Counted from the stretch's first letter, positions 5,517 through 62,927 are shown. The stretch is DNA of 64,000 bases from an uncultured Actinomycetes bacterium (GCA_963847665.1 CAWKAO010000003.1:85453-149452); one strand, 5' to 3'. The notes: generated by a model not told the origin, from the letters alone. Translations and numbers: made by a program.

Positions 5517-5537
5517 AGATCAGTATTAATGTGCACC

Positions 5538-9527: not shown

Positions 9528-9557
9528 AGCAAATAAATCAATATTATTATTTATAAA

Positions 9558-11625: not shown

Positions 11626-11644
11626 TTTTAAAATTTTATTTACT

Positions 11645-13499: not shown

Positions 13500-13604
13500 G
13501 CAAATTATAGATAAAACCTAATATTTCTTTACTTTGTAAATAAAATGTTTTATTTTAGAAAAACTATTTTTACTAAAAACCCGATAATACAATAGAGCAG
13601 TAAT

Positions 13605-14393: not shown

Positions 14394-14409
14394 CCCTCTG
14401 GACTTACGT

Positions 14410-18975: not shown

Positions 18976-19066
18976 TTTAGTATCCTATAAATTATTTGAA
19001 TAAATAAAATTATTAGAACGTTCGTCATTAAGCCAACCGTTTAGAGTAAGGCCAGTTTTGTCTTTT

Positions 19067-25694: not shown

Positions 25695-25717
25695 GAATGA
25701 AATCCGTTATGGTATTT

Positions 25718-26870: not shown

Positions 26871-26891
26871 TTTTTACTTTTAGCTCTGCAC

Positions 26892-27648: not shown

Positions 27649-28437
27649 TCAATCAGAGATCCCCCATTTTATAATGGTCCTTTTTTCAACCTGTTTCATC
27701 AAAACTTCTTCGATCATTATTCCAATAATCACTATTACAAAAAGACCTGCAAATACGTCGGGTATTTCAAGGAAATACCTTTTCTGATATATATACCATC
27801 CCAGTCCACCTATCAGACCAGTAGCTCCAAATACCATTTCAGCCCCCACCAGTGCCCTCCAGCTCCTGGACCATGCTATTTTTAGACCTGAAAAAATATG
27901 AGGGAAAGCATTGGGTATCATCACTGAAAAAACAAGATGTAATTCTGACATGCCCAGACTCCTGCCCAATTCTATCTGCGTTTTAGGTACCGTGCGAAAT
28001 CCTGCAATTGAATTTACAATCACCGGCCAAATAACAGAATGGACGATGATTATTATTATTGCTTTTGCTCCCAACCCGACAATAAGCATTACTATCGGTA
28101 AAAGCGCAATACCGGGAAGTGGGTGCATTATGGATATTACCAGGTCAAGGATATGCGCAAAACTTTTATTGACCATATAAAATGCTGTCAGGATGAAAGC
28201 AGCGATCATACCGATCGCAATACCAGTAAATATTAGATACAAGGAATAGAGCGTATACTTTATGATCTCGCCTGAAATGATATTTTTCCACAATGCAACA
28301 AAAATAATAGATACGGGGGGTATAAGATTTGTTGAAGAAATAACAAACCTGGCCAGAAGTTCCCAAATTAAAAATACTGAAGCCAAAAATCCAAGCTTTA
28401 TAAATATTCCGGAGTATTTTTTCCTAAATGAAACCAT
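27649..28437 (-). CDS. ABC transporter permease (NitT/TauT family, SsuC/TauC-like)
   Basis: 262 aa, 6 TM segments, with the EAA-like loop 'ELGRSLGMSELHLVFSVMIPNAFPHI'. Confidence 0.8.
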   Translation of the reverse strand: MVSFRKKYSGIFIKLGFLASVFLIWELLARFVISSTNLIPPVSIIFVALWKNIISGEIIKYTLYSLYLIFTGIAIGMIAAFILTAFYMVNKSFAHILDLVISIMHPLPGIALLPIVMLIVGLGAKAIIIIIVHSVIWPVIVNSIAGFRTVPKTQIELGRSLGMSELHLVFSVMIPNAFPHIFSGLKIAWSRSWRALVGAEMVFGATGLIGGLGWYIYQKRYFLEIPDVFAGLFVIVIIGIMIEEVLMKQVEKRTIIKWGISD

Positions 28438-28485
28438 TCCAAGAATTCATTTTCTTCAAATATAGCCTGATAATAACGTATTAAT

Positions 28486-29463
28486 TCAATTTGCTTTCGA
28501 AGGATCAAGGTTATCCCAGATAAGTTCCGAGACATCTGTGGTTGTCTTCTGGACATAATCCGAGCTTTTCATAAAATCCAGAAACTTCAACATACCTTCT
28601 GGATTTTTAGAAAAAACCACTCCAGGCCATGTCAATTGCTTATATACTTCTTCACTTTCAAGGTCCATATCTTCTGCAAGCAATTTTGCTGCTTCTTCTG
28701 GATTTTCATTTATCCAATTTATTGAGTCATCAAGAGCTGAATCAATCGCTTTATAAAGGGAAGGGTTGCTGTTTTTAAATTTTTCAGTGCTGATGACAAC
28801 TAAAAAAGTAAATTGGGAGCCAAAGCAATCTTTTTCAGCATCAAGTACCTGATGTATGCTCTTATCTTCAAGCTCCATAAAAATATAGGGAGGTGATGTA
28901 AAATGAGCATCTATCTCTATCTTATTGATAAGAGCATTTGCTGCGTCTGGATGTGCCATCGCGACAATCTGATTATCAAGAGCTTTTGGGTCACCAAGCT
29001 GTTGTTTACATGCCATAGATAGGAGGATATGCTGGATACTTCCCGGCCCGGGTAGGGCTATCTTCATTTCTGGCTTTATATCATTGAGTGTCTTTATTTC
29101 TTCGTGATATGTCTGTAAACCAAGCGGCATCTTACATAGGGCTCCTAATACCTTAACGCCCAGATCTTTATTCCAGGATATTAAAAAAGGTGGAACACCC
29201 ATACTGCCGATATCGACTGCTCCGGATGCTATTGCTTCATTTATCGTCCCGCCCGATCCTAACTGGACCCATTCCACCTCAGCTCCCTCATAATATTTTT
29301 CAATAAGGTTTTTCTTTTGCATTATCATAAGAGGAGCATACCCCAGTCCGAATTGTTGAGCTATTACTACTTTTTGTGATTCCTGGGCAGCAGACTTGCA
29401 TCCCGGTAAAACAAAGATTAATATAAAAAAAATAACTAAAAAAATTATAGAATATTTCCTCAC
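28486..29463 (-). CDS. ABC transporter substrate-binding lipoprotein (NMT1/SsuA/TauA-like)
   Basis: Signal peptide with lipobox 'LPGC'. Periplasmic-binding-protein type II fold features. Confidence 0.7.
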   Translation of the reverse strand: MRKYSIIFLVIFFILIFVLPGCKSAAQESQKVVIAQQFGLGYAPLMIMQKKNLIEKYYEGAEVEWVQLGSGGTINEAIASGAVDIGSMGVPPFLISWNKDLGVKVLGALCKMPLGLQTYHEEIKTLNDIKPEMKIALPGPGSIQHILLSMACKQQLGDPKALDNQIVAMAHPDAANALINKIEIDAHFTSPPYIFMELEDKSIHQVLDAEKDCFGSQFTFLVVISTEKFKNSNPSLYKAIDSALDDSINWINENPEEAAKLLAEDMDLESEEVYKQLTWPGVVFSKNPEGMLKFLDFMKSSDYVQKTTTDVSELIWDNLDPSKAN

Positions 29464-29685: not shown

Positions 29686-30357
29686 TTGGGGTCAGTAGAT
29701 ATATTGGGATTCAGTCCAGGTTTTATCAGTATGGTAATTACTGTGCTTATAAAATGCTACGGCAAGGATCTGAACATCCGAATAATAAAAAATATTGCCA
29801 TTGAGGGAAATATCCCTTACAAAATATCCGGACCTGCTTATGATACGATAATGCACACTGAATGGGACGCGGGACACGTCTACAATCGAAAAAATTTTCT
29901 TGGTGTCGGTAATGTATTATCAAAAAAAACAGTATTTGATTTTTTTTATAAAAACTATTCACTGGATTTCAAAATGTATTGCAATATTATTCATCCAGGT
30001 GCAGATATCGCAGAAAATATAAAAATAGGATTTGGAAATTTTCTTAATTATGGTGTAACTATTGGCCCGTTTTCTGAAATAGGTAATTTCGTCACTTTTA
30101 ACAGACACGTCGGTATTGGTCACCATACTCAGATATCGGATTTTTGTGTAATAAATCCAGGGGTCAATATTGCAGGTTTTTGTGAAATTGGAGAGGGTTC
30201 GTCTATAGGTATGGGTTCAAACATTATAGATGGAATAAAAATCGGTAAAAACGTTATAATCGGCGCGGGTTCACTAGTAAATAAGGACATAGAAGATAAT
30301 GTTGTAGCATATGGAATTCCCGCAAAAACCATCAGGGTAAATGACCAAATAAAGTAA
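29686..30357 (+). CDS. Sugar N/O-acetyltransferase of the NeuD/PglD/WeeI family (left-handed beta-helix)
   Basis: N-terminal alpha/beta domain followed by hexapeptide repeats: 'IGEGSSIGMGSNIIDGIKIGKNVIIGAGSLVNKDIEDNVVAYGIPAK'. Confidence 0.7.
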   Translation: MGSVDILGFSPGFISMVITVLIKCYGKDLNIRIIKNIAIEGNIPYKISGPAYDTIMHTEWDAGHVYNRKNFLGVGNVLSKKTVFDFFYKNYSLDFKMYCNIIHPGADIAENIKIGFGNFLNYGVTIGPFSEIGNFVTFNRHVGIGHHTQISDFCVINPGVNIAGFCEIGEGSSIGMGSNIIDGIKIGKNVIIGAGSLVNKDIEDNVVAYGIPAKTIRVNDQIK

Positions 30358-30386: not shown

Positions 30387-31220
30387 ATGTCTAAACTAAT
30401 AATAAATTTTGCTCCTACAGGTATGAAGCCAACGAAAGACTGGACCCCTCATGTGCCAATAACACCAGATGAAATAATAGAGCAGGTGCACGAGGCATAT
30501 GATCTGGGCATAACTATTGTACACCTGCATGCAAGAGACAGCCAGACTGGAAAGCCGGATTATAGAGCTTTTATCTATGAAAAAATTATCAGTGGCATAA
30601 GAAAACACTGTAAAGATTTGATTATCAGCCTTTCAACAAGCGGCAGGTCTTTTTCAGAGTTCGAAAAAAGATCAGAGGTATTGCAGCTAAAACCTGATTT
30701 AGCGTCACTAACAATGTCATCACTGAATTTTCTTCATGATTCTCATATGAACGATCCTGAAATGATAAATAAATTAGCTTGTAGGATGAATGAATTAGGA
30801 GTACACCCCGAGATCGAATGTTTTGATAGTGGGATGGTAAATTATGCCAAATACATGATAAGTAAAAACATCCTGAAACCACCTCTTTATTGGAACCTTT
30901 TGTTTGGAAACATTTTTACTGCCCAGCCTGATCTGGCAAATATAGGCATTACAGTAAGGGATCTTCCCCCGGACTCTATTTATGCCTTTGCTGGTCTGGG
31001 AGCTTCTCAACTTAAAGTATCTACATATGCTATTGCTTCAGGTGCCCCAGGTGTCAGGATAGGGATAGAGGACAATGTGTATTACGATGCTAAAAAATCT
31101 TTGTTTGCATCAAACTTCATGCTGGTAAAAAGAATCCACCAGATCTCTGAGATTTTTGAAAGAGAAATCATGAAACCTTCAGAATTCGGAGCAATGGGAT
31201 TTTATAATTCAAAAAAATGA
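30387..31220 (+). CDS. BKACE-family enzyme (3-keto-5-aminohexanoate cleavage enzyme-like, DUF849)
   Basis: 'LIINFAPTGMKPTKDWTPHVPITPDEIIEQVHEAYDLGITIVHLHARD' is the characteristic BKACE TIM-barrel N-terminus with the metal-binding H-x-H. Confidence 0.65.
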   Translation: MSKLIINFAPTGMKPTKDWTPHVPITPDEIIEQVHEAYDLGITIVHLHARDSQTGKPDYRAFIYEKIISGIRKHCKDLIISLSTSGRSFSEFEKRSEVLQLKPDLASLTMSSLNFLHDSHMNDPEMINKLACRMNELGVHPEIECFDSGMVNYAKYMISKNILKPPLYWNLLFGNIFTAQPDLANIGITVRDLPPDSIYAFAGLGASQLKVSTYAIASGAPGVRIGIEDNVYYDAKKSLFASNFMLVKRIHQISEIFEREIMKPSEFGAMGFYNSKK

Positions 31221-33229
31221 AACTTTTTTATCGTTCAAGTCCTTATAAGTATATTATACTGGCAATTTTAATAAACCTTCTTTTGTTCTCACTATTTTTT
31301 TGTTTTATTACACCGAGATATCAGTCAAACGATGACAGTACAATGGAAGGGATCGCTTCAGGTATAAGGACAGGACAGCCTTCTGAATACCTGGTTTTCA
31401 TTGACATATTAATAGGAAAATTGCTTGTTTTTTTGTATAGCAACCTTATAAATATAAACTGGTACCCGGTTTTATTTTATTTACTGCATTTCATATCAAT
31501 GTCAATAATGTGTTTTTGCCTGCTTTTAAGAAAAAAGTTTTTACCGGGACTTGCCTTTTATTTGCTTATCTTTGCATTTTTTGAATTGTTTCTGCTTACA
31601 AATATACAGTTTACTACAACTTCATTTGTTTCTGCTATATCAGGTGTAATATTATTTTTGTCATTTCTTGATTCCAGGGGCTCCAGGTTCTATATCGCAA
31701 CAGTTATAAGTATTTTTTTATTTATAATCTCAGAATTTATAAGACACTATATGTCTTTCCTGGTACTCGGACTTTTTTCTATTTTGTTATTATTTAAGTT
31801 CATTAAAAAACCGGGGCTTAAAATACCAGTTTTTCTGATAATAACAGCTGTTCTTTTTACTTTGATTTATTTCCACAATATTAACTACTACCAGAAAGAT
31901 CCTAAATGGGCTTTTTATATCCAGTATAATAAGCTTAGACCCGAAATCAGTGATTATCCGCAAAAAAAATATAGTGAAAGTACAAAGGATGTTTACAGGA
32001 TTGTGGGTTGGAGTGAAAATGATGTCAAAATGTATAAATCCTGGTTTTTTAGTGATCTTGAATTGTATTCCCTTGAAAAAGTCCAATATATTGTAGACAG
32101 CATCAGTAATGATAACGGGCCAAAAGAGACATTTGATGTGTGGAAGAAGGCATTTAATGATCTGAATTTGAAAATCAGGATTTTTACAATATTTTTTTTA
32201 ATAGTTCTGATTATTGAAGCAATAAAAAACAGGAACAAATATCTTTTATTTACGACAATACCCCCTTTTATAATATCTTTATACTTTTCATATACCAACA
32301 GGTTGCCCAACAGATTATTTATACCACTAATATTTTTTACCATCCTCACATCCGCTTTTTTTAAAAGTGATTTTGTTTTCCTGACTGCACTAAAAAGTAA
32401 GAAAAAGACATTTATGCTTATATCACTAGCAGTCTGTATTATCATATTCTCTTCAATTTTTATTACCACTTCAATCGCAAGCAGGACAAACTTTGAAAAA
32501 CAGGAAGAATTTAATGAAAAAATAAGCAGGATGAAAGAACATGACTTTATATATGTCAGATGGGGTGCTGCGCCATTGCATGATAAAAAAATTTCATTTA
32601 CCATCCCGGAAAATCTTAAAGGTCTCAAGTATATACAGCAGGGATGGTTGCAGCACAGCCCGATATACAATGAGATACTACTTAAATATTCAATTGAAAA
32701 TATCTATACAGATATAATCCTAAGGAATGATATCAGGGTCTTATGTACCAAGGATCAGGGTAAATTATTAAAAATATTTATTGAAGAGCACTATGGTGTC
32801 TATATTGAAAGTAGTATCGATTCGAATTTTAATGGGGGTTACAATATAACAAGTTTTTACATTCCTGACGGTCCTTTAAGCCTTCTTTTTAAAAGGGCAT
32901 ATTTCTACAAATATGGTAAAGGTGCAAGTAATGATGAAGCTTTAAAATATTATAAATTACTTCAAACAGGAGGCCTTCGATCGGATGCAATCGGCATTGA
33001 AATAAAAAAAATACTTCTAAGTGAAGGCTCGCTGCTCGAAAGTAAAAGTGATAAAGAATTTTTAATAGCATTGTATGCTGTGTTCTTTGATAGAAAACCT
33101 GATATTACAGGACAGGTCATGTGGTTACAGAAATTAAGTAACGGCTACTCACGCTCAGATATTATTGATTCTTTTCTGGCATCGGTTGAATTTCAAAAAA
33201 AATATAAAGATAGCCTGGATACTTTGTGA
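31217..33229 (+). CDS. Polytopic membrane protein (GT-C-like N-terminal region) with a C-terminal DUF4214 domain
   Basis: About 11 TM segments, acidic motif 'QSNDD' in the first extracytoplasmic loop. C-terminal 'FLIALYAVFFDRKPDITGQVMWLQKLSNGYSRSDIIDSFLASVEFQKKY' matches the DUF4214 consensus. Overlaps the BKACE gene by 4 nt. Confidence 0.5.
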   Translation: MKLFYRSSPYKYIILAILINLLLFSLFFCFITPRYQSNDDSTMEGIASGIRTGQPSEYLVFIDILIGKLLVFLYSNLININWYPVLFYLLHFISMSIMCFCLLLRKKFLPGLAFYLLIFAFFELFLLTNIQFTTTSFVSAISGVILFLSFLDSRGSRFYIATVISIFLFIISEFIRHYMSFLVLGLFSILLLFKFIKKPGLKIPVFLIITAVLFTLIYFHNINYYQKDPKWAFYIQYNKLRPEISDYPQKKYSESTKDVYRIVGWSENDVKMYKSWFFSDLELYSLEKVQYIVDSISNDNGPKETFDVWKKAFNDLNLKIRIFTIFFLIVLIIEAIKNRNKYLLFTTIPPFIISLYFSYTNRLPNRLFIPLIFFTILTSAFFKSDFVFLTALKSKKKTFMLISLAVCIIIFSSIFITTSIASRTNFEKQEEFNEKISRMKEHDFIYVRWGAAPLHDKKISFTIPENLKGLKYIQQGWLQHSPIYNEILLKYSIENIYTDIILRNDIRVLCTKDQGKLLKIFIEEHYGVYIESSIDSNFNGGYNITSFYIPDGPLSLLFKRAYFYKYGKGASNDEALKYYKLLQTGGLRSDAIGIEIKKILLSEGSLLESKSDKEFLIALYAVFFDRKPDITGQVMWLQKLSNGYSRSDIIDSFLASVEFQKKYKDSLDTL

Positions 33230-33323: not shown

Positions 33324-34529
33324 TTAAATACTATTTTTGTCATCTTTAAAAAAACTTTTTATCACCTTTATTATCCTGTCCAGGTCTTCTTTATTTAAAT
33401 CATAAAAAAGCGGTAGTCTTAATATGCGATCCGATACATCTTCAGTTACAGGAAAGTCACCTGGTCTGTAACCCAACTTCGCTCCCATAGGGGATAAGTG
33501 AAGCGGCAAAAAATGGAATACAGCAATGATGTTGCTTCTTTTAAAATGATCCATCAGATCATTTCTTGTTTTTAGATCATTTAATAATATATAAAAAATA
33601 TGGCTGTTATGAGTGCAGTTATCGGGTATTACAGGTAGTCTTAAAAGTCCTTTTTTTTGAAATATTTCAAGATTTTCATAATAATGATTCCAGATATAAG
33701 ACCTTTTTTTATTTATATTATAAATTTTTTCAAATTGAGCATATAGAAAAGCAGAAAGCACCTCTGAGGGAAGGAATGATGAACCAATATCCACCCAGCT
33801 ATATTTATCGACTTCACCCCTGAAAAATTTGCTCCTGTTCGTACCCTTCTCTCTTATTATCTCTGCTCTCTCAAAAAAACTTTCATCATTTAACAAAAGT
33901 GCTCCACCCTCACCGCAAATTACATTTTTAGTCTCATGAAAGCTATAACAGCCTAGATTTCCAATACTGCCGAGATAACTATCCTTATATTTTGCTTCTA
34001 TGGCATGGGCAGCATCTTCAATAAGGATAAGGTTATAGTTTCTTGCAATTTGTACTATCTTATCCATTTCACAGGAGACACCTGCATAGTGGATCAGGAC
34101 AATAGCCCTGGTAAACGGGTTTATTGCTTCTTCAATTTTGTCTTCATCGATATTTAAAGTATCTTCCCTGATTTCTGCAAACCTTATGGTCGCATTTCTT
34201 ATGTAAAATGAGTTTGCAGCAGAAACAAAATTAAATGAAGGCATTATGACTTCATCTTCCTTTTTAATGCCAGCAAGTATTGCTGTCATATCCAGGGCAC
34301 TTGAGCATGACGTGGTCAGCAAGGCTTTTTTTACCCCATATCTTGCCTGGATAAAATCATGGCACTTTGTGGTGAAATCCCCGTCCCCGCTTATTTTTCC
34401 GCTTTCAACAGCCTGCTTTATATAGGAAAGCTCATTTCCGACTATTGAAGGTTTATTAAACGGGATCTTTGCGGTTTGCTTTTTTTCTGTTTCCTTCAAT
34501 ATATTTATTTTATTAATGTTCACTGTCAC
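33324..34529 (-). CDS. DegT/DnrJ/EryC1/StrS-family PLP-dependent sugar aminotransferase (ArnB/PglE-like)
   Basis: 'ALLTTSCSSALDMTAILAGIKKEDEVIMPSFNFVSAANSF' and 'YSFHETKNVICGEGGALL', which includes the PLP-lysine region. Confidence 0.85.
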   Translation of the reverse strand: MTVNINKINILKETEKKQTAKIPFNKPSIVGNELSYIKQAVESGKISGDGDFTTKCHDFIQARYGVKKALLTTSCSSALDMTAILAGIKKEDEVIMPSFNFVSAANSFYIRNATIRFAEIREDTLNIDEDKIEEAINPFTRAIVLIHYAGVSCEMDKIVQIARNYNLILIEDAAHAIEAKYKDSYLGSIGNLGCYSFHETKNVICGEGGALLLNDESFFERAEIIREKGTNRSKFFRGEVDKYSWVDIGSSFLPSEVLSAFLYAQFEKIYNINKKRSYIWNHYYENLEIFQKKGLLRLPVIPDNCTHNSHIFYILLNDLKTRNDLMDHFKRSNIIAVFHFLPLHLSPMGAKLGYRPGDFPVTEDVSDRILRLPLFYDLNKEDLDRIIKVIKSFFKDDKNSI

Positions 34530-35454
34530 TATTTATATTGATTGTATCTCTTATGACATACTGAGGCTGTTTATTCTGTGACATAAAAATCCTTCCAACA
34601 TATTCACCTATTAAGCCTACTGAGATCAGCTGTATTCCCGAAAAGAAAAGGATAGCAACAATTGTCGAAGTCCAACCTGTAACAAGAACCGAATCTAACA
34701 TTTTTCTTATCAGTAATATTAATGCGATTATAAAACCTGCTGCAGCACATAATAAACCAAAAAATAATGCGATCCTTAAAGGTTTTACTGAAAAGTTAGT
34801 AAATCCGTTAAACCATAGCCGCAATAATTTAATGAAACTGTAATTCGACTTTCCATGTGCTCTTTTTTTATGCTCTATGTTTACCACTCCTATATTGCTT
34901 GTAATTCTTAAAACAAGACCAGGCAGGTAGGGATATGGTCCCTGGTATTCCAGTATCTCTGTAGCAAGGTATTTTCTAATTACAAAATAACTTGAAGTTT
35001 TTAAATTTCTTGGCTTTTTTAACAGGATATTTGCCATAACAGCATTGATGGTACTGCCAAATTTTCTGAAAATGTTGTGTTTTTTATTAATATAATTTGC
35101 ATATATGATATCATAGCCTTCATCTAACTTTTTTATAAGTTTCCAGATCTCTTCAGGAGGAGTCTGGAGATCATCATCCATAAAAACTGCAACTTCGCCC
35201 TGTATAAACTTTAAACCTGCGATCATTGCATTGTGCTGGCCAAAATTTCTGGAAAGGTTTACAAGTTTGATAGAGTTGTATGATTGTGCTAACTTTAAGC
35301 ACCTGCTGTAACTTGAATCAGTACTCCCGTCGTTCACAAGAATTATTTCATAAGAAACCTTTTCATCTAATTCCCTTAGAAGTCTACCAACGACTTCATC
35401 AATTGTGTTTTCTGAATTATAAACCGGTATGATTATGGATAACATAAAAGACAT
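34513..35454 (-). CDS. Polyprenyl-phosphate sugar synthase, GT2 (GtrB/ArnC/DPM1-like) with two C-terminal TM helices
   Basis: 'MSFMLSIIIPVYNSENTI...ILVNDGSTDSS...VFMDDDLQTPPEEI' plus a C-terminal TM pair. The ORF is open to 35586, but the GT2 consensus starts at the Met at 35454. Overlaps the aminotransferase by 17 nt. Confidence 0.8.
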   Translation of the reverse strand: MSFMLSIIIPVYNSENTIDEVVGRLLRELDEKVSYEIILVNDGSTDSSYSRCLKLAQSYNSIKLVNLSRNFGQHNAMIAGLKFIQGEVAVFMDDDLQTPPEEIWKLIKKLDEGYDIIYANYINKKHNIFRKFGSTINAVMANILLKKPRNLKTSSYFVIRKYLATEILEYQGPYPYLPGLVLRITSNIGVVNIEHKKRAHGKSNYSFIKLLRLWFNGFTNFSVKPLRIALFFGLLCAAAGFIIALILLIRKMLDSVLVTGWTSTIVAILFFSGIQLISVGLIGEYVGRIFMSQNKQPQYVIRDTININSDSEH

Positions 35455-35694
35455 AAAAATATTCTTTCTATTTATGTTTATTAATACTTCGGCAGAAATT
35501 TTAATTACTCTTATTTTAGACATTATATAATAATTATCCATATTTTTTAGTGCTAATAATGATATTAAAGGAAGTATTCTTACCATTTATGTTAAGAATA
35601 CATGCTGATATAATGAGACTGCCAACAGTTACCCAGTAAATATCACTTGCCGAAGCTGGAAAAAAGAACAGTTAAGCAAGATTTATAAATTTAT

Positions 35695-37334
35695 TTGATA
35701 TTTAAAAGTATGTATTTTTTTAGTTCTATCAGAAGTTTTGCAGACAGTAAATATAAGTTGATCATAGTACTTTTTTTCATTATCTTCTTCATAATTGGTA
35801 TATTATCGGTAAGTGATTATGGGATTTCAACAGATGAAGGAGTCCAGCGTGATTTAGGCAATAATGCCTTAAATCTTGTTCTTAAAAATGATAAGGCCAT
35901 ATTTGAATATGAAAATAAGTACCATGGTACTGGTTTTACACTACCCCTAACCATCCTGGTGAAAAGCTTAAATATTAAGAATTTAAGGACTATTTTTTTA
36001 ATCAGGCATTATTTTACTTTTTTATTATTCTACATCTCAGTTATATTCTTCTACTTACTTTGCAGGAAATATTTTTAAGGACTGGAAACTTGGACTGCTT
36101 GGAGGCATTTTTTTAGTCCTTTCACCAAGAATATTTGCAGATTCATTTTACAACCCAAAAGACCTTCCTTTTTTATCAGCTTTTATTGTTTCTATTTTTA
36201 CTCTTAGCAGGTTTCTTGAGACTAAAAATATAAAATTTGCATTCTTACACGGTTTTGCTACAGGATTTGCTACAAGTATCAGGATAATAGGTATCATCAT
36301 TGTCTTTTTTACTTTTCTTTTTTTTATTTTTGATCTGATCCAGATAAAAAAACAGAAAAAAACCATAAATTCATCGCACATCTCCAATGTAATAATAAAT
36401 CTTTTAATATATCTATTTATTATGATAACTATTTTTCTTCTTTTTATGCCTGCACTGATTCCAAACACTATAAATAATTTTATTGGTGCCATAAAGCTTA
36501 TGTCAGACTATCCACACTCAAAAATAGGTCTTTACATGGGAAATATCATTTACGATACCAACCTTCCCTGGCATTATTTGCCTGTAAATATAGCAATAAT
36601 GACACCTATAATTTACACAGTATTATTTCTTTCAGGTTTAATATATTTTTTCAGCCGTTTCAGAAAAAATCTGGATACTTTTTATACCGAAAACAAATAT
36701 ATCATTATTGCTATTTTGTGGTTTTTTATTCCTGATGTTTTCCCAGATATTACTGAGCTCCAACCTGTATAACGGATGGAGGCAGATGTATTTTATCTAT
36801 CCAGCTTTATTGATCATCACACTGATCGGTATTAAATTTTTATTTGATTTCTTTAAAAAAAAGTTGAGTATCAAGAAATATAATGTAGTTGCTACAATTA
36901 TTACCTGTATATTAATCATTAATATAGCTTTTATTGCACAACTAATGATACGGCAGCATCCATACCAATATGTTTATTATAATATACTTGCAGGGAGAAA
37001 CCTGGAAGAGGTAAAGGAAAAGTATCCACTTGATTACTGGGGATTATCTTTCAAAGATGGGCTTGAATACATTCTAAGGACTGATAGCAGGGAAAAGATA
37101 ACTTATTATAACGGAGCCGGGCCAACAAGCTATTCTCAGCTTCTTCTGGATAAACAAGACAGTAAAAGATTAGTTTACGTCAATGATATCGATAAAGCCG
37201 ATTATTATTTAGATAATTATAAAAATATGGATTCTGAATATTACAAACCTTTTAACGGTTTTAGTCTCGAGAAAAAAGTCTTCAGTCTAATAGTAGATAG
37301 CGGAGAAATATTAACTGTTTATAAACTGAAATAG
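35695..37334 (+). pseudogene. Decayed paralog of the ~540-aa GT-C-fold membrane glycosyltransferase (GtrC-type)
   Basis: Three consecutive frames carry the colinear homologue of 43662-45311. A +1 shift sits at ~36072 in a T5 run ('CRKYF|KDWKLG' vs paralog 'CKKIFKDWKFG'). A second shift at ~36745 is a non-homopolymer 2-nt indel ('WFFIP|VFSQILLSSNLYNGW' is restored if 'at' is removed). Confidence 0.7.
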
Positions 37335-37422: not shown

Positions 37423-38487
37423 TTATAAATAACTTGTATAAATCTCCTTATAATATCTTCCAGCCAGTATTTTCCAGTCCAGCTCATCTACTTTTTGAAA
37501 ACCATTTTCTATTATCCTGACCCTCTGGTCACCATCATTTATAATCGATTTACAATTATCAGTAAGGTCCAAGATATCATCAACAGGACTTATCATGGCA
37601 TTCTGGCCGTTTATTGCTATATCATGCACCATGCCTACATCAGTGCTGACTACAGGTATGCACATAGCAAAAGATTCCATCAGAGCCTTTGGTCCCCCCT
37701 CAGTCCTTGAAGTGATAAGATACAGATCAAGGGCTCTATAATAATAAGGTATTTTTAATACATCCCTTGGGTAGAAATGTGCAAACGGGATACCTGCTTC
37801 TTTAAGTTTTTCTTTTACAAACCCTCTTGCAGGCCCGGTTAGCAGAACAAAAACAGGAAAGTCTTTTCTCAACCTTTTAACGACCTCGCAGAATATATCA
37901 GGGCCTTTTATAAGTTTGGGTTTTAAACCTTCGCCCCATCCGTCACCGTCTTTCTGGAAAGAGCCGATACATATAGAACCTTCGGGGATCATAAGCTTTC
38001 TTCTAATCTCTTCCCTGTCTTGTTTAAGGAAACTTTTAAAATATCCGACATCTATTCCTATAGGTATTATGATTATCTTTTCAGATGGAATCCCCCATTT
38101 TATAAGATTGTCCCTGCTCATGGTACATGAAGTAGTAACAACATCTATTTTTTTAGAGATTTCAGATAAATTATCTATATATTCCCTGTCCTTATCAGTA
38201 CCGTGATACCAGGTTAGAATAATATTATTAGTATTTGAGATATAATTATGTATGTCTGGCAAGTATGTGTTTCTTGACCCAAAATGTAATATCTGATTTT
38301 TTATGCCTGATAATCTCCTCTTAGAAGATTTAACAAGCTTTATATCAAGATCAAAAATCCTTTTTATATTTTGCGCTATGGATCGGCCTTCCCAGGCAAT
38401 GACCCATTCTATCCCTTCTATAACATAGTAGATATTTTTTTTATGGCTCAATCTCATCGTATCCTGATAAAATTTATCTCTATTCAA
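37423..38487 (-). CDS. Glycosyltransferase, GT4 family
   Basis: 'RTEGGPKALMESFAMCIPVVSTDVGMVHDI' GT-B donor-binding motif. Confidence 0.8.
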   Translation of the reverse strand: MNRDKFYQDTMRLSHKKNIYYVIEGIEWVIAWEGRSIAQNIKRIFDLDIKLVKSSKRRLSGIKNQILHFGSRNTYLPDIHNYISNTNNIILTWYHGTDKDREYIDNLSEISKKIDVVTTSCTMSRDNLIKWGIPSEKIIIIPIGIDVGYFKSFLKQDREEIRRKLMIPEGSICIGSFQKDGDGWGEGLKPKLIKGPDIFCEVVKRLRKDFPVFVLLTGPARGFVKEKLKEAGIPFAHFYPRDVLKIPYYYRALDLYLITSRTEGGPKALMESFAMCIPVVSTDVGMVHDIAINGQNAMISPVDDILDLTDNCKSIINDGDQRVRIIENGFQKVDELDWKILAGRYYKEIYTSYL

Positions 38488-38580
38488 AAAAAAATAAATT
38501 TAATAGAATTAATAAATAAAATATAATAAAATTTCAGAGCTAAATTATATTATAAAATCATCATTTATATAAATAGAAAA

Positions 38581-39901
38581 TGAATCCGGATTTGTTTTAC
38601 GACCAGCTTATAAAAAAAGAAACAAGATATAGCTGTAGTAGGGCTCGGCTATGTCGGTCTTCCATTGCTTATCGAACTTTCCAGATATTTTGATGTCATC
38701 GGCTTTGATTTAAACAGGCAACGAATATCGGAATTGAGGGAAAATCACGACAAGGACAGGAATGTAAGCATTGAAGAACTTACAGGTATTAAATGTAAAT
38801 ATACTGCCGACGTATAAGATCTTAATCTGGCTAACTTCTTTATAATCGCAGTACCTACTCCCATAGATACTGATAAAAACCCTGACATTACACTCTTAAG
38901 GGAGGCGACAATTACTGCTGGTGAGAATATGCCGTCTGGCTCTATCGTTGTCTATGAATCAACTGTATATCCTGGTGTCACTGAAGAAATCTGCATTCCT
39001 TTACTTGAGGAACATTCAAATCTAAAAAGTGGGCGGGACTTTTTTGTCGGTTACTCGCCCGAAAGGGTCAACCCTGGGGACAGGCAGCACACCCTTAAAA
39101 ATATACAGAAAGTCATATCTGCACAGGATGATGATTCTCTGGAAGTAATATCAAAAGTCTACAATAAAATTGTACCTGCTGGTGTTTTTAAGGCTTCAAG
39201 CATAAAAGTCGCAGAAGCCGCCAAAGTCATTGAAAACACCCAGAGAGATCTTAATATAGCTCTTATCAATGAACTTGCTATTATTTTTTCTAAAATGCGA
39301 TATCGATACAAGTGAGGTCCTTGAGGCAGCATCGACTAAATGGAACTTTATTAAATTTTATCCGGGCCTTGTCGGAGGGCATTGTATTGGAGTGGACCCA
39401 TACTACCTTACTTACAAAGCAAAAAAAATAGGATACCAGCCGGATGTGATACTTGCAGGCAGGAAAATAAATGATGGGATGGGATTATTTATTGGTCAGG
39501 AAATAATTAAAAACCTGGAAACAACCTACAAGGATATTAAAGGATCAAAAGCTATTATCTTCGGAATTACTTTTAAAGAGAACGTATCAGACATCAGAAA
39601 TTCCAGGGTGACTGATATTTATGATCACCTAAAGGTAAATGGTATAGATGCTCTTATATATGATCCTATTGCTAATAAAAATGATGTAAAAAAACATTAT
39701 GGAATAGATCTCATCGAGTTTGAAGAAATTAAAGGGGCAGATGCATTTATTTTTTGTGTATCACATAATGAGTTTAAAAATATTGATCTTAAAAGCTTAA
39801 AAGAAAAACAGAACAAAGAAAATCCTTTTATTTTTGATATAAAATGGATATTTAGAAAAGAAGATATAGAAAAGCTTGGTTACAGATACTGGAGAGTATA
39901 A
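38581..39901 (+). pseudogene. UDP-N-acetylhexosamine 6-dehydrogenase (TviB/WbpO/Cap5O-like), multiply disrupted
   Basis: (1) Frameshift in an A7 run at 38611-38617 between 'MNPDLFYDQLIKK' and 'DIAVVGLGYVGLPLLIEL'. (2) In-frame TAA at 38815-38817 ('[21 protein letters not shown]'). (3) Frameshift at ~39285-39300 between 'NELAIIF..' and '[16 protein letters not shown]...GGHCIGVDPYYL'. Confidence 0.75.
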
Positions 39902-40795
39902 ATGAGGCTTAATGAACTTAAGTTTAACAAGAAAATAAAAATACTTGTTACAGGCTGCGCAGGTTTTATCGGCAGCAATATAATGGAATTCCTACTCAGT
40001 AGGGATATGGCTGTTATCGGCCTAGATGATTTTTCTACAGGAACAAAAGATAATATGGATGAAGTTATCAATTCAATTTCTGAAGTCAATGAAAATCCGG
40101 ATTTCAAGTTTATCCAGGGAGATATAAGAGATTATAATTCATGTATTGCGGCGACAAAAAGTACAGACATTGTACTTCACCATGCTGCACTTGGTTCAGT
40201 TCAACGCTCAATTGAAAATCCCGCTGATTCAAGTTCTGTAAATATCGAAGGCACCCTTAATTTGTTAAGAGCTTCAACAGAAAACAAAGTCAAAAAATTT
40301 ATATATGCATCTTCATCATCTGTTTATGGTGATACAGCAATACTGCCAAAAGTCGAAGACATGCCTCCCAATCCAAAATCCATTTATGCAGTGACTAAAC
40401 TAACAGCAGAGTATTATTGCCGCCTGTATTTTGAAATGTTTGGTTTAATGACAATATCATTGAGATATTTTAATGTATTTGGAAGACGTCAAAACCCTGG
40501 TTCCATTTATTCAGCGGTCATACCAAAATTTTTAAAGAAGATTTCAGAGAACCAGCAACCTGAGGTATATGGAGATGGAAATCAGAGCAGGGATTTTACA
40601 TATATTGATAATGTAATATTTGCCAATTATCTTGCTATGACTTCGGAGAATGACAGATTGTATGGCAATTTTTACAATATCGCATGCGCAAAGAGGATCA
40701 GCCTCAATGAAATCATAGGTTTTATTTCAAAGACAAAGGGCATCCAATGTTACACCGGTCTATCTTCCAGAAAGAAAAGGAGATGTAAGGCATAG
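39902..40795 (+). CDS. UDP-sugar 4-epimerase of the WbpP/TviC type (extended SDR), with two frameshifts in the last ~50 codons
   Basis: 'KILVTGCAGFIGSNIMEFLL' NAD motif. The true C-terminus ('PVYLPERKGDVRHSLAGIEKAKK' then 'ILGYYPLVCFDEGFKRTCGSILNK*') is reached only after frame changes at ~40740 and in an A6 run at ~40825. The stop is at 40897-40899. Confidence 0.7.
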   Translation: MRLNELKFNKKIKILVTGCAGFIGSNIMEFLLSRDMAVIGLDDFSTGTKDNMDEVINSISEVNENPDFKFIQGDIRDYNSCIAATKSTDIVLHHAALGSVQRSIENPADSSSVNIEGTLNLLRASTENKVKKFIYASSSSVYGDTAILPKVEDMPPNPKSIYAVTKLTAEYYCRLYFEMFGLMTISLRYFNVFGRRQNPGSIYSAVIPKFLKKISENQQPEVYGDGNQSRDFTYIDNVIFANYLAMTSENDRLYGNFYNIACAKRISLNEIIGFISKTKGIQCYTGLSSRKKRRCKA

Positions 40796-41048
40796 CCTTG
40801 CAGGAATAGAAAAAGCAAAAAAGGATCCTGGGTTATTATCCGCTTGTATGTTTTGATGAAGGCTTCAAACGGACCTGTGGATCTATTTTAAATAAATAAT
40901 AGGTTTTACACCCTTCGACCTCATATCTATATTCATGCATAGATGATTCATATATCCCTCATAATCGACTATAGCAATTTGACATATTAAAAAAAATAAT
41001 AGTAATAATATTCTTATAAATGTATAATGATTTTTTTAAAAAAATTAA

Positions 41049-43661: not shown

Positions 43662-45311
43662 TTGTTATATTATAAAAATATGCATTTTCTGGAGAATGTT
43701 AAAAACTTAGCCGAAAAAAAATATAAGTTTATAATAATCTCTTTCTTCATCTTATTTTTAATTATTGGGATCTTGATTGTTAAAGACTATGGATACTCTA
43801 CAGATGAAGAATATGAAAGAGAACTGGGTAATGACGCTTCAAATCTTGTCTTGAAGAACGATACAAGCTTGTTTGGTATCAGTTATATGTTTCATGGTAC
43901 AGCTTTTACGTTCCCTTTAACAATTATGCAGAAGATTTTTAATATTGAAAATCCAAGGACTACCTTTTTACTTAGGCACTATTCTACTTTTTTACTATTT
44001 TATATAGCTGTTATATTTTTTTATTTACTATGTAAAAAAATTTTTAAAGATTGGAAATTTGGATTTCTTGCAAGTATTTTTTTGGTACTTTCCCCAAGAA
44101 TATTTGTTGATTCATTTTATAATCCCAAGGATCTGCCATTTTTATCATTTTTTATAATTTCCATTTTCACTCTTCAAAGATTTTTCGAGACTAAAAATAT
44201 TAAATTCGCTTTTTTGCATGGTTTCGCTTCAGGATTTGCTGTAGCTTCCAGAATAATAGGTATTATTATACCCTTTTTTACAATTCTTTTTTTTATTGCA
44301 GATTTGTTAATAGAAAAAAAGCAACTAAGAGAAGATAGTAAAACTCAAAGATCCTCTAAAAAAATTCAATACCTACTTATTTATTTATTTATAACAATAA
44401 CTGTTTTTCTTATCTTGATGCCAGCCATGCTACCGGACCCTTTAAATAATTTTATTGCTGCTATAAGAAGAATGTCAGATTATCCCCTTAATGCCAGATT
44501 TCTATATATGGGACAAAATATATCTAGTCTTAACAACCTTCCCTGGCATTATTTACCAGTGAATATAATAATAATGACTCCAATAGCTTATACTGTGTTA
44601 TTCTTTATTGGTCTGGCATTTTTTATTAGCAATATACGAAAAAACATACTTATTTTTTACATACAAAATAAGTATATCATTATAGCTGTTTTATGGTTTT
44701 TTATCCCAGTATTTGCTGCGATACTTTTGAAATCAAATCTATATAATGGATGGAGACAGATGTATTTTATCTATCCAGCATTCTTAATAATCGCATTAAA
44801 GGGTGTCAATTCTTTATATGGGATCTTTAGACAGAAACTGGCACTAAAAACGTATAACTGTTTAGCTGCTGTTATTACTGTATTTCTCATCTTTAACTCC
44901 ATATTTATACTACAGTTGATGATAAAAGAGCATCCATATCAATATATATACCACAACATTATTGCAGGAAAAAATTTAATAGAAGTAAAAGATGATTTTA
45001 CTCTCGACTACTGGGGATTATCATTTAAAGATGGGCTTGATTATATCTTGAAGACCGATAATCGAATTAGAATAACTTATACGTCCCGAAACAGCCCAAA
45101 AGAAAAATCTGAATATCTTTTATCGGAGCAGGACAGCAAAAGACTAGTTTTTGTTACTGATATTAATGAAGCAGATTATTTCTTAAATCATTATAAATCC
45201 TCTGATATAAGACTGGAATTGCAAGGAATAAAGCAAGAATACTTAATAAATAAAGTATATAGTCTGACTGTTGGTGGTGCAGAAATAATGACAGTATTTA
45301 AATTAAGATAG
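43662..45311 (+). CDS. GT-C-fold membrane glycosyltransferase (GtrC-type), paralog 1 of 4
   Basis: 549 aa, ~11 TM segments. Acidic motif 'YSTDEEYE' in the first extracytoplasmic loop, conserved 'FYNPKDLPFLSFF' and 'LPWHYLPVNIIIMTP'. Colinear with 53719-55341, 61311-62927 and the pseudogene at 35695-37334. Confidence 0.65.
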   Translation: MLYYKNMHFLENVKNLAEKKYKFIIISFFILFLIIGILIVKDYGYSTDEEYERELGNDASNLVLKNDTSLFGISYMFHGTAFTFPLTIMQKIFNIENPRTTFLLRHYSTFLLFYIAVIFFYLLCKKIFKDWKFGFLASIFLVLSPRIFVDSFYNPKDLPFLSFFIISIFTLQRFFETKNIKFAFLHGFASGFAVASRIIGIIIPFFTILFFIADLLIEKKQLREDSKTQRSSKKIQYLLIYLFITITVFLILMPAMLPDPLNNFIAAIRRMSDYPLNARFLYMGQNISSLNNLPWHYLPVNIIIMTPIAYTVLFFIGLAFFISNIRKNILIFYIQNKYIIIAVLWFFIPVFAAILLKSNLYNGWRQMYFIYPAFLIIALKGVNSLYGIFRQKLALKTYNCLAAVITVFLIFNSIFILQLMIKEHPYQYIYHNIIAGKNLIEVKDDFTLDYWGLSFKDGLDYILKTDNRIRITYTSRNSPKEKSEYLLSEQDSKRLVFVTDINEADYFLNHYKSSDIRLELQGIKQEYLINKVYSLTVGGAEIMTVFKLR

Positions 45312-53718: not shown

Positions 53719-55341
53719 ATGCTAGAAAGAATAAAAAAAATAGCTGAAAATAATTACAGGGTCATTGTAATTATTTTTTTTATAGCTTTTCTTATAATCG
53801 GCCTGATTTCTGTCGGCGATTATGGATTTTCCACAGATGAAGGACTGCAGTATGATCTTGGGAACTCTGCTGTAAAATTGTTATTAAATAATGATAGGGT
53901 CATTTATGAATTAAATAACAGGTATCATGGCACGGCTTTTACACTCATCATGACCATAATACAGAGAAATTTTGATATCAGTGACACAAGGACTATTTTT
54001 TTATTAAGACATTATTTTACTTTTTTACTTTTCTTTACCTCAGTTATACTTTTCTATTTTCTCTGCAGGAACATTTTTAAATCATGGAAAATCGGATTAC
54101 TTGGCAGCATCTTCCTGGTCCTTTCTCCAAGAATATTTGTAGACGCTTTCTATAATCCAAAAGATCTTCCTTTTTTATCTATGTTTGTTATTTCTATCTT
54201 TACACTCAATAGGTTCCTTGAAAAAGGTGGGCTAGGGCTGGCATTTTTTCATGGGATAGCTTCAGGTTTTGCCTGTAGCATGAGAATTGTCGGTGTATTG
54301 GTTCCCTTTTTCACAATATTATTTCTTATTTTTGAACTGGTCCTTAAAAAAAAGGACAGCCAAAATACTAAAGACATGCAGATCAAAAAAAGGATACAGC
54401 ATCTGCTGATATACTTACTTATTACGATAATTGTCTTTCTCGTACTTATGCCTTCTATCGTTACAGATCCTATAAAACATTTCTTTGCCGCCATCAAGCA
54501 TATGTCAGATTTTCCCCATAACACTACATTTTTATATATGGGACAGGTTTTAACCACCGGAAATGGCCTGCCCTGGCATTATTTGCCTGTAAATATATTA
54601 ATAATGACTCCTATTCCCTATACCATTTTATTTTTTATAGGGATCGTATTTTTATTCGTCCAGGTAAAAAGAAAAAACGGGATTTATTATAATGCGAACA
54701 AATATATTATTATTGCTGTCTTATGGTTCTTAATGCCTGTACTTTCTGCAATTTTTTTAAGCTCCAATATGTACAACGGATGGCGCCAGATGTATTTTGT
54801 TTATCCGGCATTTTTAATAATAGGGTTAAATGGTGTTAAAAAAATATATGGGATTTTTGAGAAAAAATTAAAGCCGGGATACTATAATATTATTTCAATA
54901 ATGATTACTGGTCTATTATTAATTAATATAGTATTTTTTACACAGATAATAGTAAGATTGCACCCATATGAATATGTCTATCACAATATGCTTGCAGGAA
55001 AAGACCTGAAAGAAGTCAAAGAAAACTTCATACTTGATTACTGGGCTTTATCCTATAAAGACGGTTTTGAATATATTTTAAGAACTGATAATAGAGATAA
55101 AATAACTTTTACAGTAAGATGTGCTCCAAAGGAATCGCTAATATCTCTTTTCCCGGAGCAGGATAGAAATAGGTTGAAATACGTTACTAACATCCAGGAT
55201 GCAGATTATTTTTTGAATAATTATCAGTGCGGTGATCTGATCCTTGAATCACAGGGAGTCGAGCAGTCAGACTTGAAGAATAAGGTATACTCTACATATT
55301 TAAATGGTGTAGAATTACTGGTAGTCTATAAGTTAAAATAA
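53719..55341 (+). CDS. GT-C-fold membrane glycosyltransferase (GtrC-type), paralog 2 of 4
   Basis: 540 aa. 'DYGFSTDEGLQYDLGN', 'FYNPKDLPFLSMF' and 'LPWHYLPVNILIMTP' are colinear with 43662-45311. Confidence 0.65.
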   Translation: MLERIKKIAENNYRVIVIIFFIAFLIIGLISVGDYGFSTDEGLQYDLGNSAVKLLLNNDRVIYELNNRYHGTAFTLIMTIIQRNFDISDTRTIFLLRHYFTFLLFFTSVILFYFLCRNIFKSWKIGLLGSIFLVLSPRIFVDAFYNPKDLPFLSMFVISIFTLNRFLEKGGLGLAFFHGIASGFACSMRIVGVLVPFFTILFLIFELVLKKKDSQNTKDMQIKKRIQHLLIYLLITIIVFLVLMPSIVTDPIKHFFAAIKHMSDFPHNTTFLYMGQVLTTGNGLPWHYLPVNILIMTPIPYTILFFIGIVFLFVQVKRKNGIYYNANKYIIIAVLWFLMPVLSAIFLSSNMYNGWRQMYFVYPAFLIIGLNGVKKIYGIFEKKLKPGYYNIISIMITGLLLINIVFFTQIIVRLHPYEYVYHNMLAGKDLKEVKENFILDYWALSYKDGFEYILRTDNRDKITFTVRCAPKESLISLFPEQDRNRLKYVTNIQDADYFLNNYQCGDLILESQGVEQSDLKNKVYSTYLNGVELLVVYKLK

Positions 55342-61310: not shown

Positions 61311-62927
61311 TTACTTCAAGTAATAAGGATAATACCTTAATCTGTAGACAGTCGAGATCTCCCCGCCATTAACAAGCACACTGTATACTTTATTTTTGGG
61401 ATTCAGGTATTCGTCTTCTTCAAACCTGTGGTTAATGATCAAATATTCAGTCTCTTCGAGAGTATTGACAAAAACAAGGCGCTCTTTATCCTGTTCAGAA
61501 AACATATATTCAGCAGCTTCATTACTGCCTTCTCTGGTCGTATAAGTTATCCTTTTCCTGTTATCTGTTTTTAAGATAAACTCCAGGGCGTCTTTATATG
61601 CCATGCCCCAGTAATCAAGTATAAACCTTCCTTTTACCACTTTCATATCCCTGCCAGCAAGAATATTGTAATAGATGTATTGATAGGGATGCTGCCTGAC
61701 CATAAGCTGGGTTATATATACCTGGTTCATGATAATAGCTGCAGCAAGAATCATAGCAGCAAGATTATAATATTTTATCTTTAACTTAGTAAATAATAGT
61801 CTATACATAAACTTTACTCCATTAAGGGCAAGTATCAGCAATGCCGGATATATAAAATACATCTGCCGCCAGCCGTTATATAATGTTGAACCTAATATTA
61901 TTACAGCAAGGACCGGAATAAAAAACCACATAATAGAGATAATGATAAATTTATTCTCCAAATAATAATCTATAAGGCCCTTTCTGAAGTGGCTGAAAAA
62001 ATATAAAAGTCCTATAAAGAATAGAATAGAGTAAGGTATTGGTGTCATTAGCAAAATATTAACAGGTAAATAGTGCCATGGTAAATCAAAACTCGATAAA
62101 TATTGCCCCATATATAAAAACCTTGTATCAAGGGGGAAATCAGACATTGTCTTTAATGCAGCGATAAAATTATTTAAGGGATCAGGAAGCAGCGCAGGCA
62201 TCAAGGCAAGAAAAACTATTATTGTCACAAACAGATAAATAAGAAGAATCATTATTTGTCTGTTAGTTTTTATATAAATGCTGTTATTAGTTTGTTTTTT
62301 TAATATTAATAGGTCAAGGATAAAAAATAATATTGTAAAAACAAAAATAAGAATACTGATTATTCTTAGGCCAGTTGCAATTCCAGTAACAATCCCATGT
62401 AAAAATGCATAACTTGCAGACCGCTTTTGCAGAAACCTGTAAAGTGTAAAAATTGCAATAATAAATAATGATAAGAATGGCAAGTCTTTAGGATTATAAA
62501 ATGAGTCAGCAAATATCCTAGGAGAAAGTACCAAAAAAACACTTCCAAGCAGGCCCAGTTTCCATGATTTAAAAATATTCCTGCAGAGAAAATAGAAAAA
62601 TATCACTGAGGTATAAAACAGTATAAAAGTAGCGTAATGCCTTAAAATAAATACTGTACTAGTATTATTAATATTAAAGATTCTTTCTATTATAGTTAAA
62701 ATAAGGGTGAAGGTGGTGCCATGGTATTTGTTGATATGTCCATAAATAGACCTATCGTTTCTTAATAATAATTTTATTGCTGAAATACCAAGATTTTTTT
62801 GAGAATTTTCATCCCAGGTGATCCCATAGTCTTTGACAGATAAAATACCAATTATCAAAAATATACTAAAAAATATTATTATAATTATCTTATGATTTCT
62901 ATCCGTAAAGTCTTTGATTTTATCCAT
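61311..62927 (-). CDS. GT-C-fold membrane glycosyltransferase (GtrC-type), paralog 3 of 4
   Basis: 538 aa. 'DYGITWDENSQKNLG', 'FYNPKDLPFLSLF' and 'LPWHYLPVNILLMTP'. Confidence 0.65.
   Translation of the reverse strand: MDKIKDFTDRNHKIIIIIFFSIFLIIGILSVKDYGITWDENSQKNLGISAIKLLLRNDRSIYGHINKYHGTTFTLILTIIERIFNINNTSTVFILRHYATFILFYTSVIFFYFLCRNIFKSWKLGLLGSVFLVLSPRIFADSFYNPKDLPFLSLFIIAIFTLYRFLQKRSASYAFLHGIVTGIATGLRIISILIFVFTILFFILDLLILKKQTNNSIYIKTNRQIMILLIYLFVTIIVFLALMPALLPDPLNNFIAALKTMSDFPLDTRFLYMGQYLSSFDLPWHYLPVNILLMTPIPYSILFFIGLLYFFSHFRKGLIDYYLENKFIIISIMWFFIPVLAVIILGSTLYNGWRQMYFIYPALLILALNGVKFMYRLLFTKLKIKYYNLAAMILAAAIIMNQVYITQLMVRQHPYQYIYYNILAGRDMKVVKGRFILDYWGMAYKDALEFILKTDNRKRITYTTREGSNEAAEYMFSEQDKERLVFVNTLEETEYLIINHRFEEDEYLNPKNKVYSVLVNGGEISTVYRLRYYPYYLK

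Follow-up and report, generated by a model that had tools for sequence, protein, structure and literature searches.

Positions 33,324 to 37,334 of a 64,000-nucleotide stretch of DNA from an uncultured Actinomycetes bacterium (GCA_963847665.1, CAWKAO010000003.1:85453-149452; the whole stretch is called the window below) carry genes for a sugar aminotransferase, a family 2 glycosyltransferase (GT2), and a membrane glycosyltransferase of the GT-C fold that is broken into three reading frames. An initial annotation had described these genes as an Arn-like trio, an amino-sugar lipid-carrier module whose final transferase is dead. The whole window forms a single, very large glycan locus in which genes for glycosyltransferases (GTs) and for deoxythymidine diphosphate (dTDP)-linked sugars are numerous. 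Here we describe the families to which the three genes belong, the breaks in the GT-C gene, and the relationship of the trio to M670, an intact membrane protein of 670 amino acids (aa) encoded beside it.

Genes of the locus and their families

The aminotransferase gene (33324..34529, minus strand) encodes, from a GTG start, a 401-aa pyridoxal phosphate-dependent enzyme of the DegT/DnrJ/EryC1 family (Pfam E 9e-84). The GT2 gene (34513..35454, minus strand; Pfam Glycos_transf_2) encodes a member of the GtrB/ArnC family with a C-terminal membrane hairpin; its longest open reading frame (ORF) is 34513..35586 (minus strand), and homology starts at the ATG at 35454. The two ORFs share the 17 nucleotides (nt) 34513..34529, as the initial annotation had it, given the GTG start at 34529 and that start only. 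A start at GTG 34523 gives an 11-nt overlap with the GT2 gene, and a start at TTG 34499 leaves a 13-nt gap. In the closest relative, L113, the aminotransferase gene starts with ATG and is separated from the GT2 gene by 9 nt, and TTG 34499 may be the true start in the window. Under any start choice the two genes are co-oriented and tightly packed. The GT-C gene, of the PMT_2 type, runs divergently from the GT2 gene on the plus strand, as originally noted, from an ATG at 35710 to a stop at 37334 in three reading frames (35710..37334).

Profile searches bear out the assignment of the aminotransferase to the DegT family but not its description as ArnB-like. The protein scores 568.8 bits against the NCBIfam model NF008687 (dTDP-4-amino-4,6-dideoxygalactose transaminase; cut-off, 375) and 538.3 bits against TIGR02379 (cut-off, 434.85; residues 21-394 of 401 matched), whereas it scores 203.3 bits against the ArnB equivalog NF008658, for which the cut-off is 631. 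Scores against the PDB agree, at 427 bits for WecE (6blg and 4piw; E ~1e-127) and 148 bits for ArnB (1mdo). By these scores the aminotransferase is WecE-type and not ArnB. The predicted reaction is the conversion of dTDP-4-keto-6-deoxyglucose to a dTDP-4-amino-4,6-dideoxyhexose, the configuration at C4 (galacto, as in Fuc4N, or gluco, as in Qui4N) not being fixed by sequence.

The 313-aa GT2 aligns over its full length with the structures of GtrB (residues 4-304 with 5ekp, 175 bits) and ArnC (residues 5-309 with 9hwj, 170 bits), and the original naming of this gene stands. Against NCBIfam it scores 199 bits with PgfS and 187.1 bits with ArnC (NF007986; cut-off, 529), below every equivalog cut-off. 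These alignments place it among the polyprenyl-phosphate glycosyltransferases of the GtrB/ArnC/PgfS family.

M670 is encoded by an intact gene at 31217..33229 (plus strand) and combines a GT-C-fold domain with a C-terminal DUF4214 domain, the only domain that Pfam detects in it. A comparison of its AlphaFold2 model (predicted local distance difference test [pLDDT] score, 88.7) with known structures using Foldseek gave ArnT 5ezm as the top match (E 2.7e-4), followed by PglB, ArnT 5f15, ALG12, and DPY19, with modest template modeling scores of 0.34-0.40; M670 is predicted from this model to be a GT-C-fold membrane protein. In 24 homologs, two aspartates that come just after the first transmembrane helix, D39 and D40, do not vary. 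A profile of the M670 family collects 7,595 cluster representatives and has no hit in Pfam or NCBIfam, and none of 10 sampled family members has a Pfam family.

The window also encodes three intact paralogs (43680..45311, 53719..55341, and 61311..62927) that are 54-63% identical to the product of the PMT_2-type gene once its reading frame is repaired (see below). Each of the four genes has its own GtrB-like GT2 gene no more than about 1.3 kb away (34513-35454, 46549-47286, 52704-53660, and 59232-60182), an arrangement that suggests four separate lipid-sugar/transferase pairs in one locus. The fold was examined on the intact paralog P0002 (63% identical). Its model has a pLDDT of 85.6, and Foldseek gave GT-C enzymes throughout the 30 best matches, among them PglB, STT3, ALG9, ArnT, DPY19, PMT, AftD, and Emb. 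ArnT (5ezm) ranks 10th for this model, after PglB, STT3, and ALG9; a family profile searched against PDB sequences gave no match at E up to 1, and the protein has no match in NCBIfam. By these searches ArnT is its closest relative neither by sequence nor by structure. The family is widespread, with members in metagenome-assembled genomes (MAGs) labelled Omnitrophota, Planctomycetota, Bacteroidota, Deltaproteobacteria, and others, and in the cultured organisms Bellilinea caldifistulae and Adhaeribacter terrigena. Among the GT-C/GT2 pairs of the window lie genes for proteins with repeated TolB-like PD40 beta-propeller motifs (42087-43622, plus strand; 45328-46341, minus strand). PD40-annotated proteins recur beside the PMT_2-type family in two other loci (L002 and L003) and could be acceptors or partners.

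Frameshifts in the PMT_2-type GT-C gene

The GT-C gene reads for 122 codons to a stop in its first frame (35710..36078), continues in a second (36077..36772), and ends, through the stop codon, in a third (36745..37334). The first frameshift, at 36065..36076, consists of one extra base in GGAAATATTTTT, in a run of three As or five Ts. Single-base deletions there yield CRNIFKDWKLG, CRKIFKDWKLG, or CRKYFKDWKLG, which match the paralogs; the first of these arises when the A3 run is shortened and may be compared with CRNIFKSWK of the paralogs. The second frameshift, one extra base in TGATGTTTTCCC, is confined to 36733..36744 by a family alignment that sets its bounds at an invariant proline codon (36731-36733) and at about 36744. 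It had initially been described as a 2-nt indel at about 36745, mended by removal of the dinucleotide "at" to restore a paralog-like peptide. The net change is instead +1: single-base deletions restore the frame, and every dinucleotide deletion tried between 36690 and 36775 fails, including those of "at" at 36735, 36747, and 36749. The paralog-like peptide itself, WFFIPVFSQILLSSNLYNGWRQMYF, can be recovered, but through deletion of A36735 alone and not through removal of a dinucleotide. Other repairs give IPMFSQ or, through shortening of a T4 run, IPDVSQ, and the repair that fits the paralogs best is a non-homopolymer one.

The repaired product is a protein of 540 aa that matches Pfam PMT_2 at 32.2 bits (cut-off, 26.1). 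It keeps all 43 invariant columns of the family alignment and, like the intact paralogs, nearly all columns that are conserved at 90% or more (90 of 93); the three differences compare with one to six in intact homologs. Two acidic residues of the first extracytoplasmic loop are both retained: D42, which never varies among 30 family members, and E43, which at least 90% of them share. Apart from the lesions, we found no sign of relaxed constraint in the repaired protein (0 of 43 invariant columns differ), and its best match in the protein collection is at most 66% identical. Phase variation and programmed frameshifting were considered and set aside, given the shortness of the runs, the presence of two sites in one gene, and the intact alleles found elsewhere. 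An alternative genetic code was likewise rejected, since nearly all ORFs of the window are full length with table 11.

The locus was compared with contigs assembled independently from three read sets, ERR12037370, ERR15459714, and ERR12037369, by way of their called ORFs. All three assemblies carry exactly the 401-aa WecE-type protein of the window, and two carry exactly the 344-aa GT4 protein (GT-B fold; Pfam) encoded by the intact gene at 37423..38457 (minus strand). Beyond the GT4 gene lie two plus-strand genes that are broken in the window, one for a uridine diphosphate (UDP)-sugar 6-dehydrogenase-like (Ugd-like) protein (38580..39901) and one for an NAD-dependent sugar epimerase (39902..40899). 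A 14,241-bp contig from ERR12037370 has the same gene order as the window, and in it the GT-C gene is a single ORF of 540 aa (1623 nt, versus 1625 nt in the window) between identical flanking spacers of 89 and 124 nt, while the Ugd-like gene (439 aa) and the epimerase gene (331 aa) are intact; the window's versions of these three genes are each exactly 2 bases longer. In ERR15459714, the N-terminal GT-C ORF runs for 126 codons to the contig end, where that of the window stops after 122, and a second contig carries the C-terminal 420 aa in one ORF, so that both frameshift sites are open; the Ugd-like gene is likewise open over its first 128 codons, and the TAA at 38815 in the window is thus not present. 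In ERR12037369, by coordinate mapping, the ORF from the equivalent of 36422 is open for 209 codons, across the site of the second frameshift. The second frameshift is therefore seen only in the contig analysed here, and the first is lacking from both ERR12037370 and ERR15459714.

The breaks share a common form. The Ugd-like gene has one extra base in an A7 run (38611-38617), the TAA at 38815, and one extra base near 39300 beside an A4 run, and the epimerase gene has, near its 3' end, one extra base beside a G3/A3 run and another in an A6 run. Single +1 frameshifts also occur in the genes for an RmlD-like reductase (18241-19040, minus strand) and the ATPase of an ABC transporter (ATP-binding cassette; 26892-27648, minus strand). 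The window has eight simple frameshifts, every one of them +1. Seven were inspected in the sequence and lie at or beside short homopolymer runs (A7, A6, T5, A4, T4, and G3); that in the ABC ATPase gene was read from the translation only. Taken together, these data suggest that the GT-C frameshifts are most likely assembly consensus errors, or at most an unfixed variant, and that the PMT_2-type gene is probably functional in the organism. The claim that the final transferase is dead is not supported, as independent assemblies that encode identical WecE and GT4 proteins lack the lesions. The initial annotation had itself named absence of the indel from reads as the observation that would tell against it, and the second frameshift, as judged from ORF lengths and spacing, is missing from all three read-set assemblies.

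A different explanation is that the lesions are genuine and that the strain behind this contig has lost its PMT_2-type GT-C, UDP-sugar dehydrogenase, and epimerase genes by recent decay, while close relatives from other samples keep them. Several observations favour it and weigh against an origin in assembly. Seven lesions fall within 5.2 kb (35.7-40.9 kb) in three neighbouring glycan genes, which has a probability of about 2e-5 by a rough scan statistic, and random error predicts no such clustering; one lesion, the TAA, is a nonsense substitution and not an indel. The ERR12037369 assembly has a 122-aa N-terminal GT-C piece and so shares the first frameshift. The ERR12037370 contig has an apparent break of its own in an ABC permease gene, which implies either that real strain differences exist or that both data sets are noisy. 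Moreover, "intact" in the other assemblies is a statement about called ORF lengths and spacing, not about DNA or reads, and the window does contain heavily degraded genes elsewhere, at 24.7-26.9 kb. Set against these points are the uniform +1 sign of the indels and their position at or beside short homopolymer runs, the lack of the second frameshift even in ERR12037369, the 100% identity of the WecE (401 aa) and GT4 (344 aa) proteins across data sets, and the repair of the GT-C gene without loss of conserved residues. On balance we regard real decay as unlikely, though it is the most serious of the alternatives that we weighed, and any frameshift in this contig needs to be checked against the reads before it is given a biological meaning.

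The degraded region at 24700-26900 (minus strand) holds ATP-grasp and LPG_synthase_TM-like genes with many in-frame stops and with frame changes in both directions. The damage here greatly exceeds that in the window's other broken genes, and intact homologs exist in L113 and L114, the latter a distant relative. Two of the loci used for comparison, L002 and L113 (ENA ERZ25039602 and ERZ25039527, with contigs named in the form "contig_N"), contain many split genes, among them those for BKACE (104 + 107 aa) and a YfhO-like protein (633 + 181 aa) and pieces of DctM and Tricorn genes, a pattern as expected from uncorrected long-read indel errors.

Genes that travel with the GT2 and the aminotransferase

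About 16 informative loci with an ortholog of the GT2 were available, all from metagenomes, their GT2 proteins being 37-64% identical to that of the window. As controls we used 83 loci with a gene of the PMT_2-type family; a GtrB-like GT2 lies nearby in about one-quarter of them. A WecE ortholog is linked to the GT2 gene in 8 of the approximately 16 loci and in none of the 83 controls (Fisher p = 7.5e-8). It lies directly downstream of the GT2 gene in three (L084, L085, and L087) and within 6 kb of it in five (L091, L093, L096, L101, and L102), and the linkage holds as GT2 identity falls from 64% to 37% and as the gene order changes. Some of the loci with both genes also have paired half-size EamA genes, which is the architecture of ArnE/F, and L101 has a GtrA-family protein; in all, flippase-type genes (an EamA pair or GtrA) are present in L093, L091, L096, and L101. 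In L093 and L091 a PMT_2 GT-C gene comes directly after the WecE gene. The GT2-WecE linkage, together with the EamA, GtrA, and PMT_2 genes of the related loci, supports an Arn-like logic. By BLAST, the GT-C genes of L091, L093, and L101 have no homology to M670 or to the PMT_2-type gene of the window. The GT-C family that is paired with the GT2-WecE module differs between lineages.

The two genes might alternatively be neighbours through operon packing only, with the WecE-type enzyme feeding cytoplasmic Leloir GTs such as GT4 and the GT2 loading an ordinary hexose. The size of the glycan locus, with its many GTs and dTDP-sugar genes, would allow for such packing, and half of the informative GT2 loci have no WecE within reach. 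However, the persistence of the linkage over so wide a range of GT2 identities and through varied gene orders, and its absence from every control locus, argue against mere proximity. The Arn pathway also provides a precedent, its aminotransferase being encoded next to its lipid-sugar synthase. In view of this evidence, we consider operon packing an improbable explanation, somewhat more so than real decay of the broken genes.

The membrane protein that accompanies the GT2-WecE pair in related loci is M670. L113 shows exactly the convergent arrangement of the window, M670 (60% identical) facing WecE (76%) and GT2 (68%), and there the GT4 gene directly follows the GT2 gene without an intervening PMT_2-type gene. 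An M670 homolog comes directly after the GT2 gene in L114/L115 and L104. Intact M670 is therefore the membrane partner conserved with the GT2-WecE pair and most likely its final transferase, in place of the GT-C originally flagged for that role. The flagged PMT_2-type GT-C is more likely a neighbour from a family with four copies in the window. One observation runs counter to this assignment: in the window it is the PMT_2-type gene, not M670, that shares a divergent promoter region with the GT2 gene. Against the pathway as a whole, a tblastn search of the window with the EamA-pair and GtrA proteins of the related loci found neither, the LPG_synthase_TM-like genes not having been evaluated as flippases.

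A proposed pathway and its relationship to known systems

In the pathway that we propose, the WecE-type enzyme would make a dTDP-4-amino-4,6-dideoxyhexose of the Fuc4N or Qui4N type, which would probably be N-acylated by a nearby hexapeptide acyltransferase. On the inner side of the membrane, the GtrB/ArnC-family GT2 would then load the amino sugar onto polyprenyl phosphate, and, after flipping, a GT-C-fold enzyme would add it to an envelope polymer or protein. These first two steps rest on family assignment; the acceptance of the WecE-derived sugar by the GT2 is proposed because the genes are linked, and the third step and the acceptor are likewise inferred. The PMT_2-type GT-C at 35710..37334 may use the same donor or another. 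We estimate a probability of about 60% for the overall reading, namely, an Arn-like amino-sugar lipid-carrier pathway with M670 as the conserved partner and with artefactual frameshifts in the GT-C gene, in which the donor, its N-acylation, and the acceptor are predicted only. The notion of an amino-sugar lipid-carrier module gains support from the GT2 alignments, the WecE linkage, and the EamA pairs and GT-C genes of several linked loci; what lacks support is the dead final transferase.

The resemblance to the Arn (Pmr) system is one of logic. In both, the gene for a sugar 4-aminotransferase adjoins that for a GT2 that loads, or here would load, an amino sugar onto undecaprenyl phosphate, and a GT-C-fold enzyme is expected for the final transfer outside the cytoplasm. 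The window GT2 aligns end to end with ArnC, the top fold match of M670 is ArnT, and ArnE/F-like EamA pairs occur in related loci, though not, by tblastn, in the window. The WecE-type aminotransferase, however, points to a dTDP-6-deoxyhexose substrate rather than UDP-Ara4O, the scores fall short of both the ArnB and the ArnC equivalog cut-offs, and the acceptor may not be lipid A. By these family assignments, the window system is not a member of the Arn pathway. An Arn-type module that adds an aminoarabinose-like sugar to a glycolipid such as lipid A, with the divergent GT-C as its only and now dead transferase, would account for the likeness of the GT2 to ArnC, the presence of ArnT among the structural matches of a GT-C-fold protein, and the divergent gene arrangement. 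It is at odds with the failure of the ArnB equivalog test in an enzyme that passes as WecE, with the ArnC score, with the rank of ArnT (only 10th for the PMT_2-type model), and with the intact GT-C gene in other assemblies. Nor were ArnE/F found in the window by tblastn, or ArnA or ArnD among 15 neighbouring proteins scanned, the window as a whole not having been screened for the latter two. Finally, the closest named relatives are MAGs labelled Actinomycetota or Ca. Humimicrobiaceae, which, on the labels alone, would make lipid A unlikely. We consider this by far the least probable of the explanations discussed here.

WecE (RffA) of enterobacterial common antigen (ECA) synthesis (PDB 4piw and 6blg) belongs to the same enzyme family as the window aminotransferase, which exceeds the NCBIfam equivalog cut-off and scores 427 bits against these structures. 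In ECA synthesis, dTDP-Fuc4NAc is used by the cytoplasmic enzyme WecF on lipid II, whereas the gene in the window is coupled to one for a GtrB/ArnC-type lipid-sugar synthase. Three-component periplasmic glycosylation systems (GtrA/GtrB/Gtr* and CsbB/GtcA/YfhO) have as their hallmarks a polyprenyl-phosphate sugar synthase, which provides a lipid-linked donor, and a GT-C transferase (PMC11127046). The four GT2/GT-C gene pairs of the window resemble them in this respect. The window differs in that no GtrA or small multidrug resistance (SMR)-type flippase was recognised in it, in its predicted donor, an amino-dideoxyhexose rather than glucose, galactose, N-acetylglucosamine, or a pentofuranose, and in its GT-C proteins, which come from families without a characterised member. 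A search of a literature library found no description of a WecE-fed system of this type, which is absence of evidence only. The comparison shows a recurrent coupling of a WecE-type aminotransferase with an ArnC/GtrB-type synthase and with a GT-C-fold family that is widespread and has no annotation. Should the proposed pathway be correct, lipid-carrier surface modification would extend to 4-amino-4,6-dideoxyhexoses, and several thousand hypothetical membrane proteins would gain a candidate function.

Upstream of M670 on the plus strand lie two further genes. The first (29686..30357) encodes a sugar N-acyltransferase of the NeuD/PglB/VioB type with a left-handed beta-helix (Pfam Hexapep), which scores 134 bits against NCBIfam TIGR03570, below the cut-off of 160.8. 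The gene order here is the same in the read-set assemblies, a Hexapep gene is also present in L113, and the protein is, on the strength of its family, a candidate N-acylase of the amino sugar. The second (30387..31220) encodes an enzyme of the BKACE (beta-keto acid cleavage) family (Pfam PF05853, 255 bits) and is kept in L113 at 75-81% identity. Its final 4 nt overlap the start of M670, and it has no evident role in a glycan locus. A scan for promoters and terminators found nothing beyond chance.

Beside the GT2-M670-WecE module, the window also carries an NMT1-type ABC importer (26892-29463) and ATP-grasp ligases (21021-22250). L114 has the same ABC importer and ATP-grasp company at 3028-15104, all on one strand and with methyltransferases. 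This company may mean that the amino sugar receives a further acyl or aminoacyl group. A more specific proposal is that the GT2, the WecE-type enzyme, and M670 form an undescribed Arn-like pathway that would bring a 4-amino-4,6-dideoxyhexose to an acceptor in the cell envelope through a GT-C family that has no model and no characterised member, its sugar possibly acylated by the ATP-grasp ligases with a compound brought in by the NMT1-type importer. We put it forward tentatively, as rather less than an even bet.

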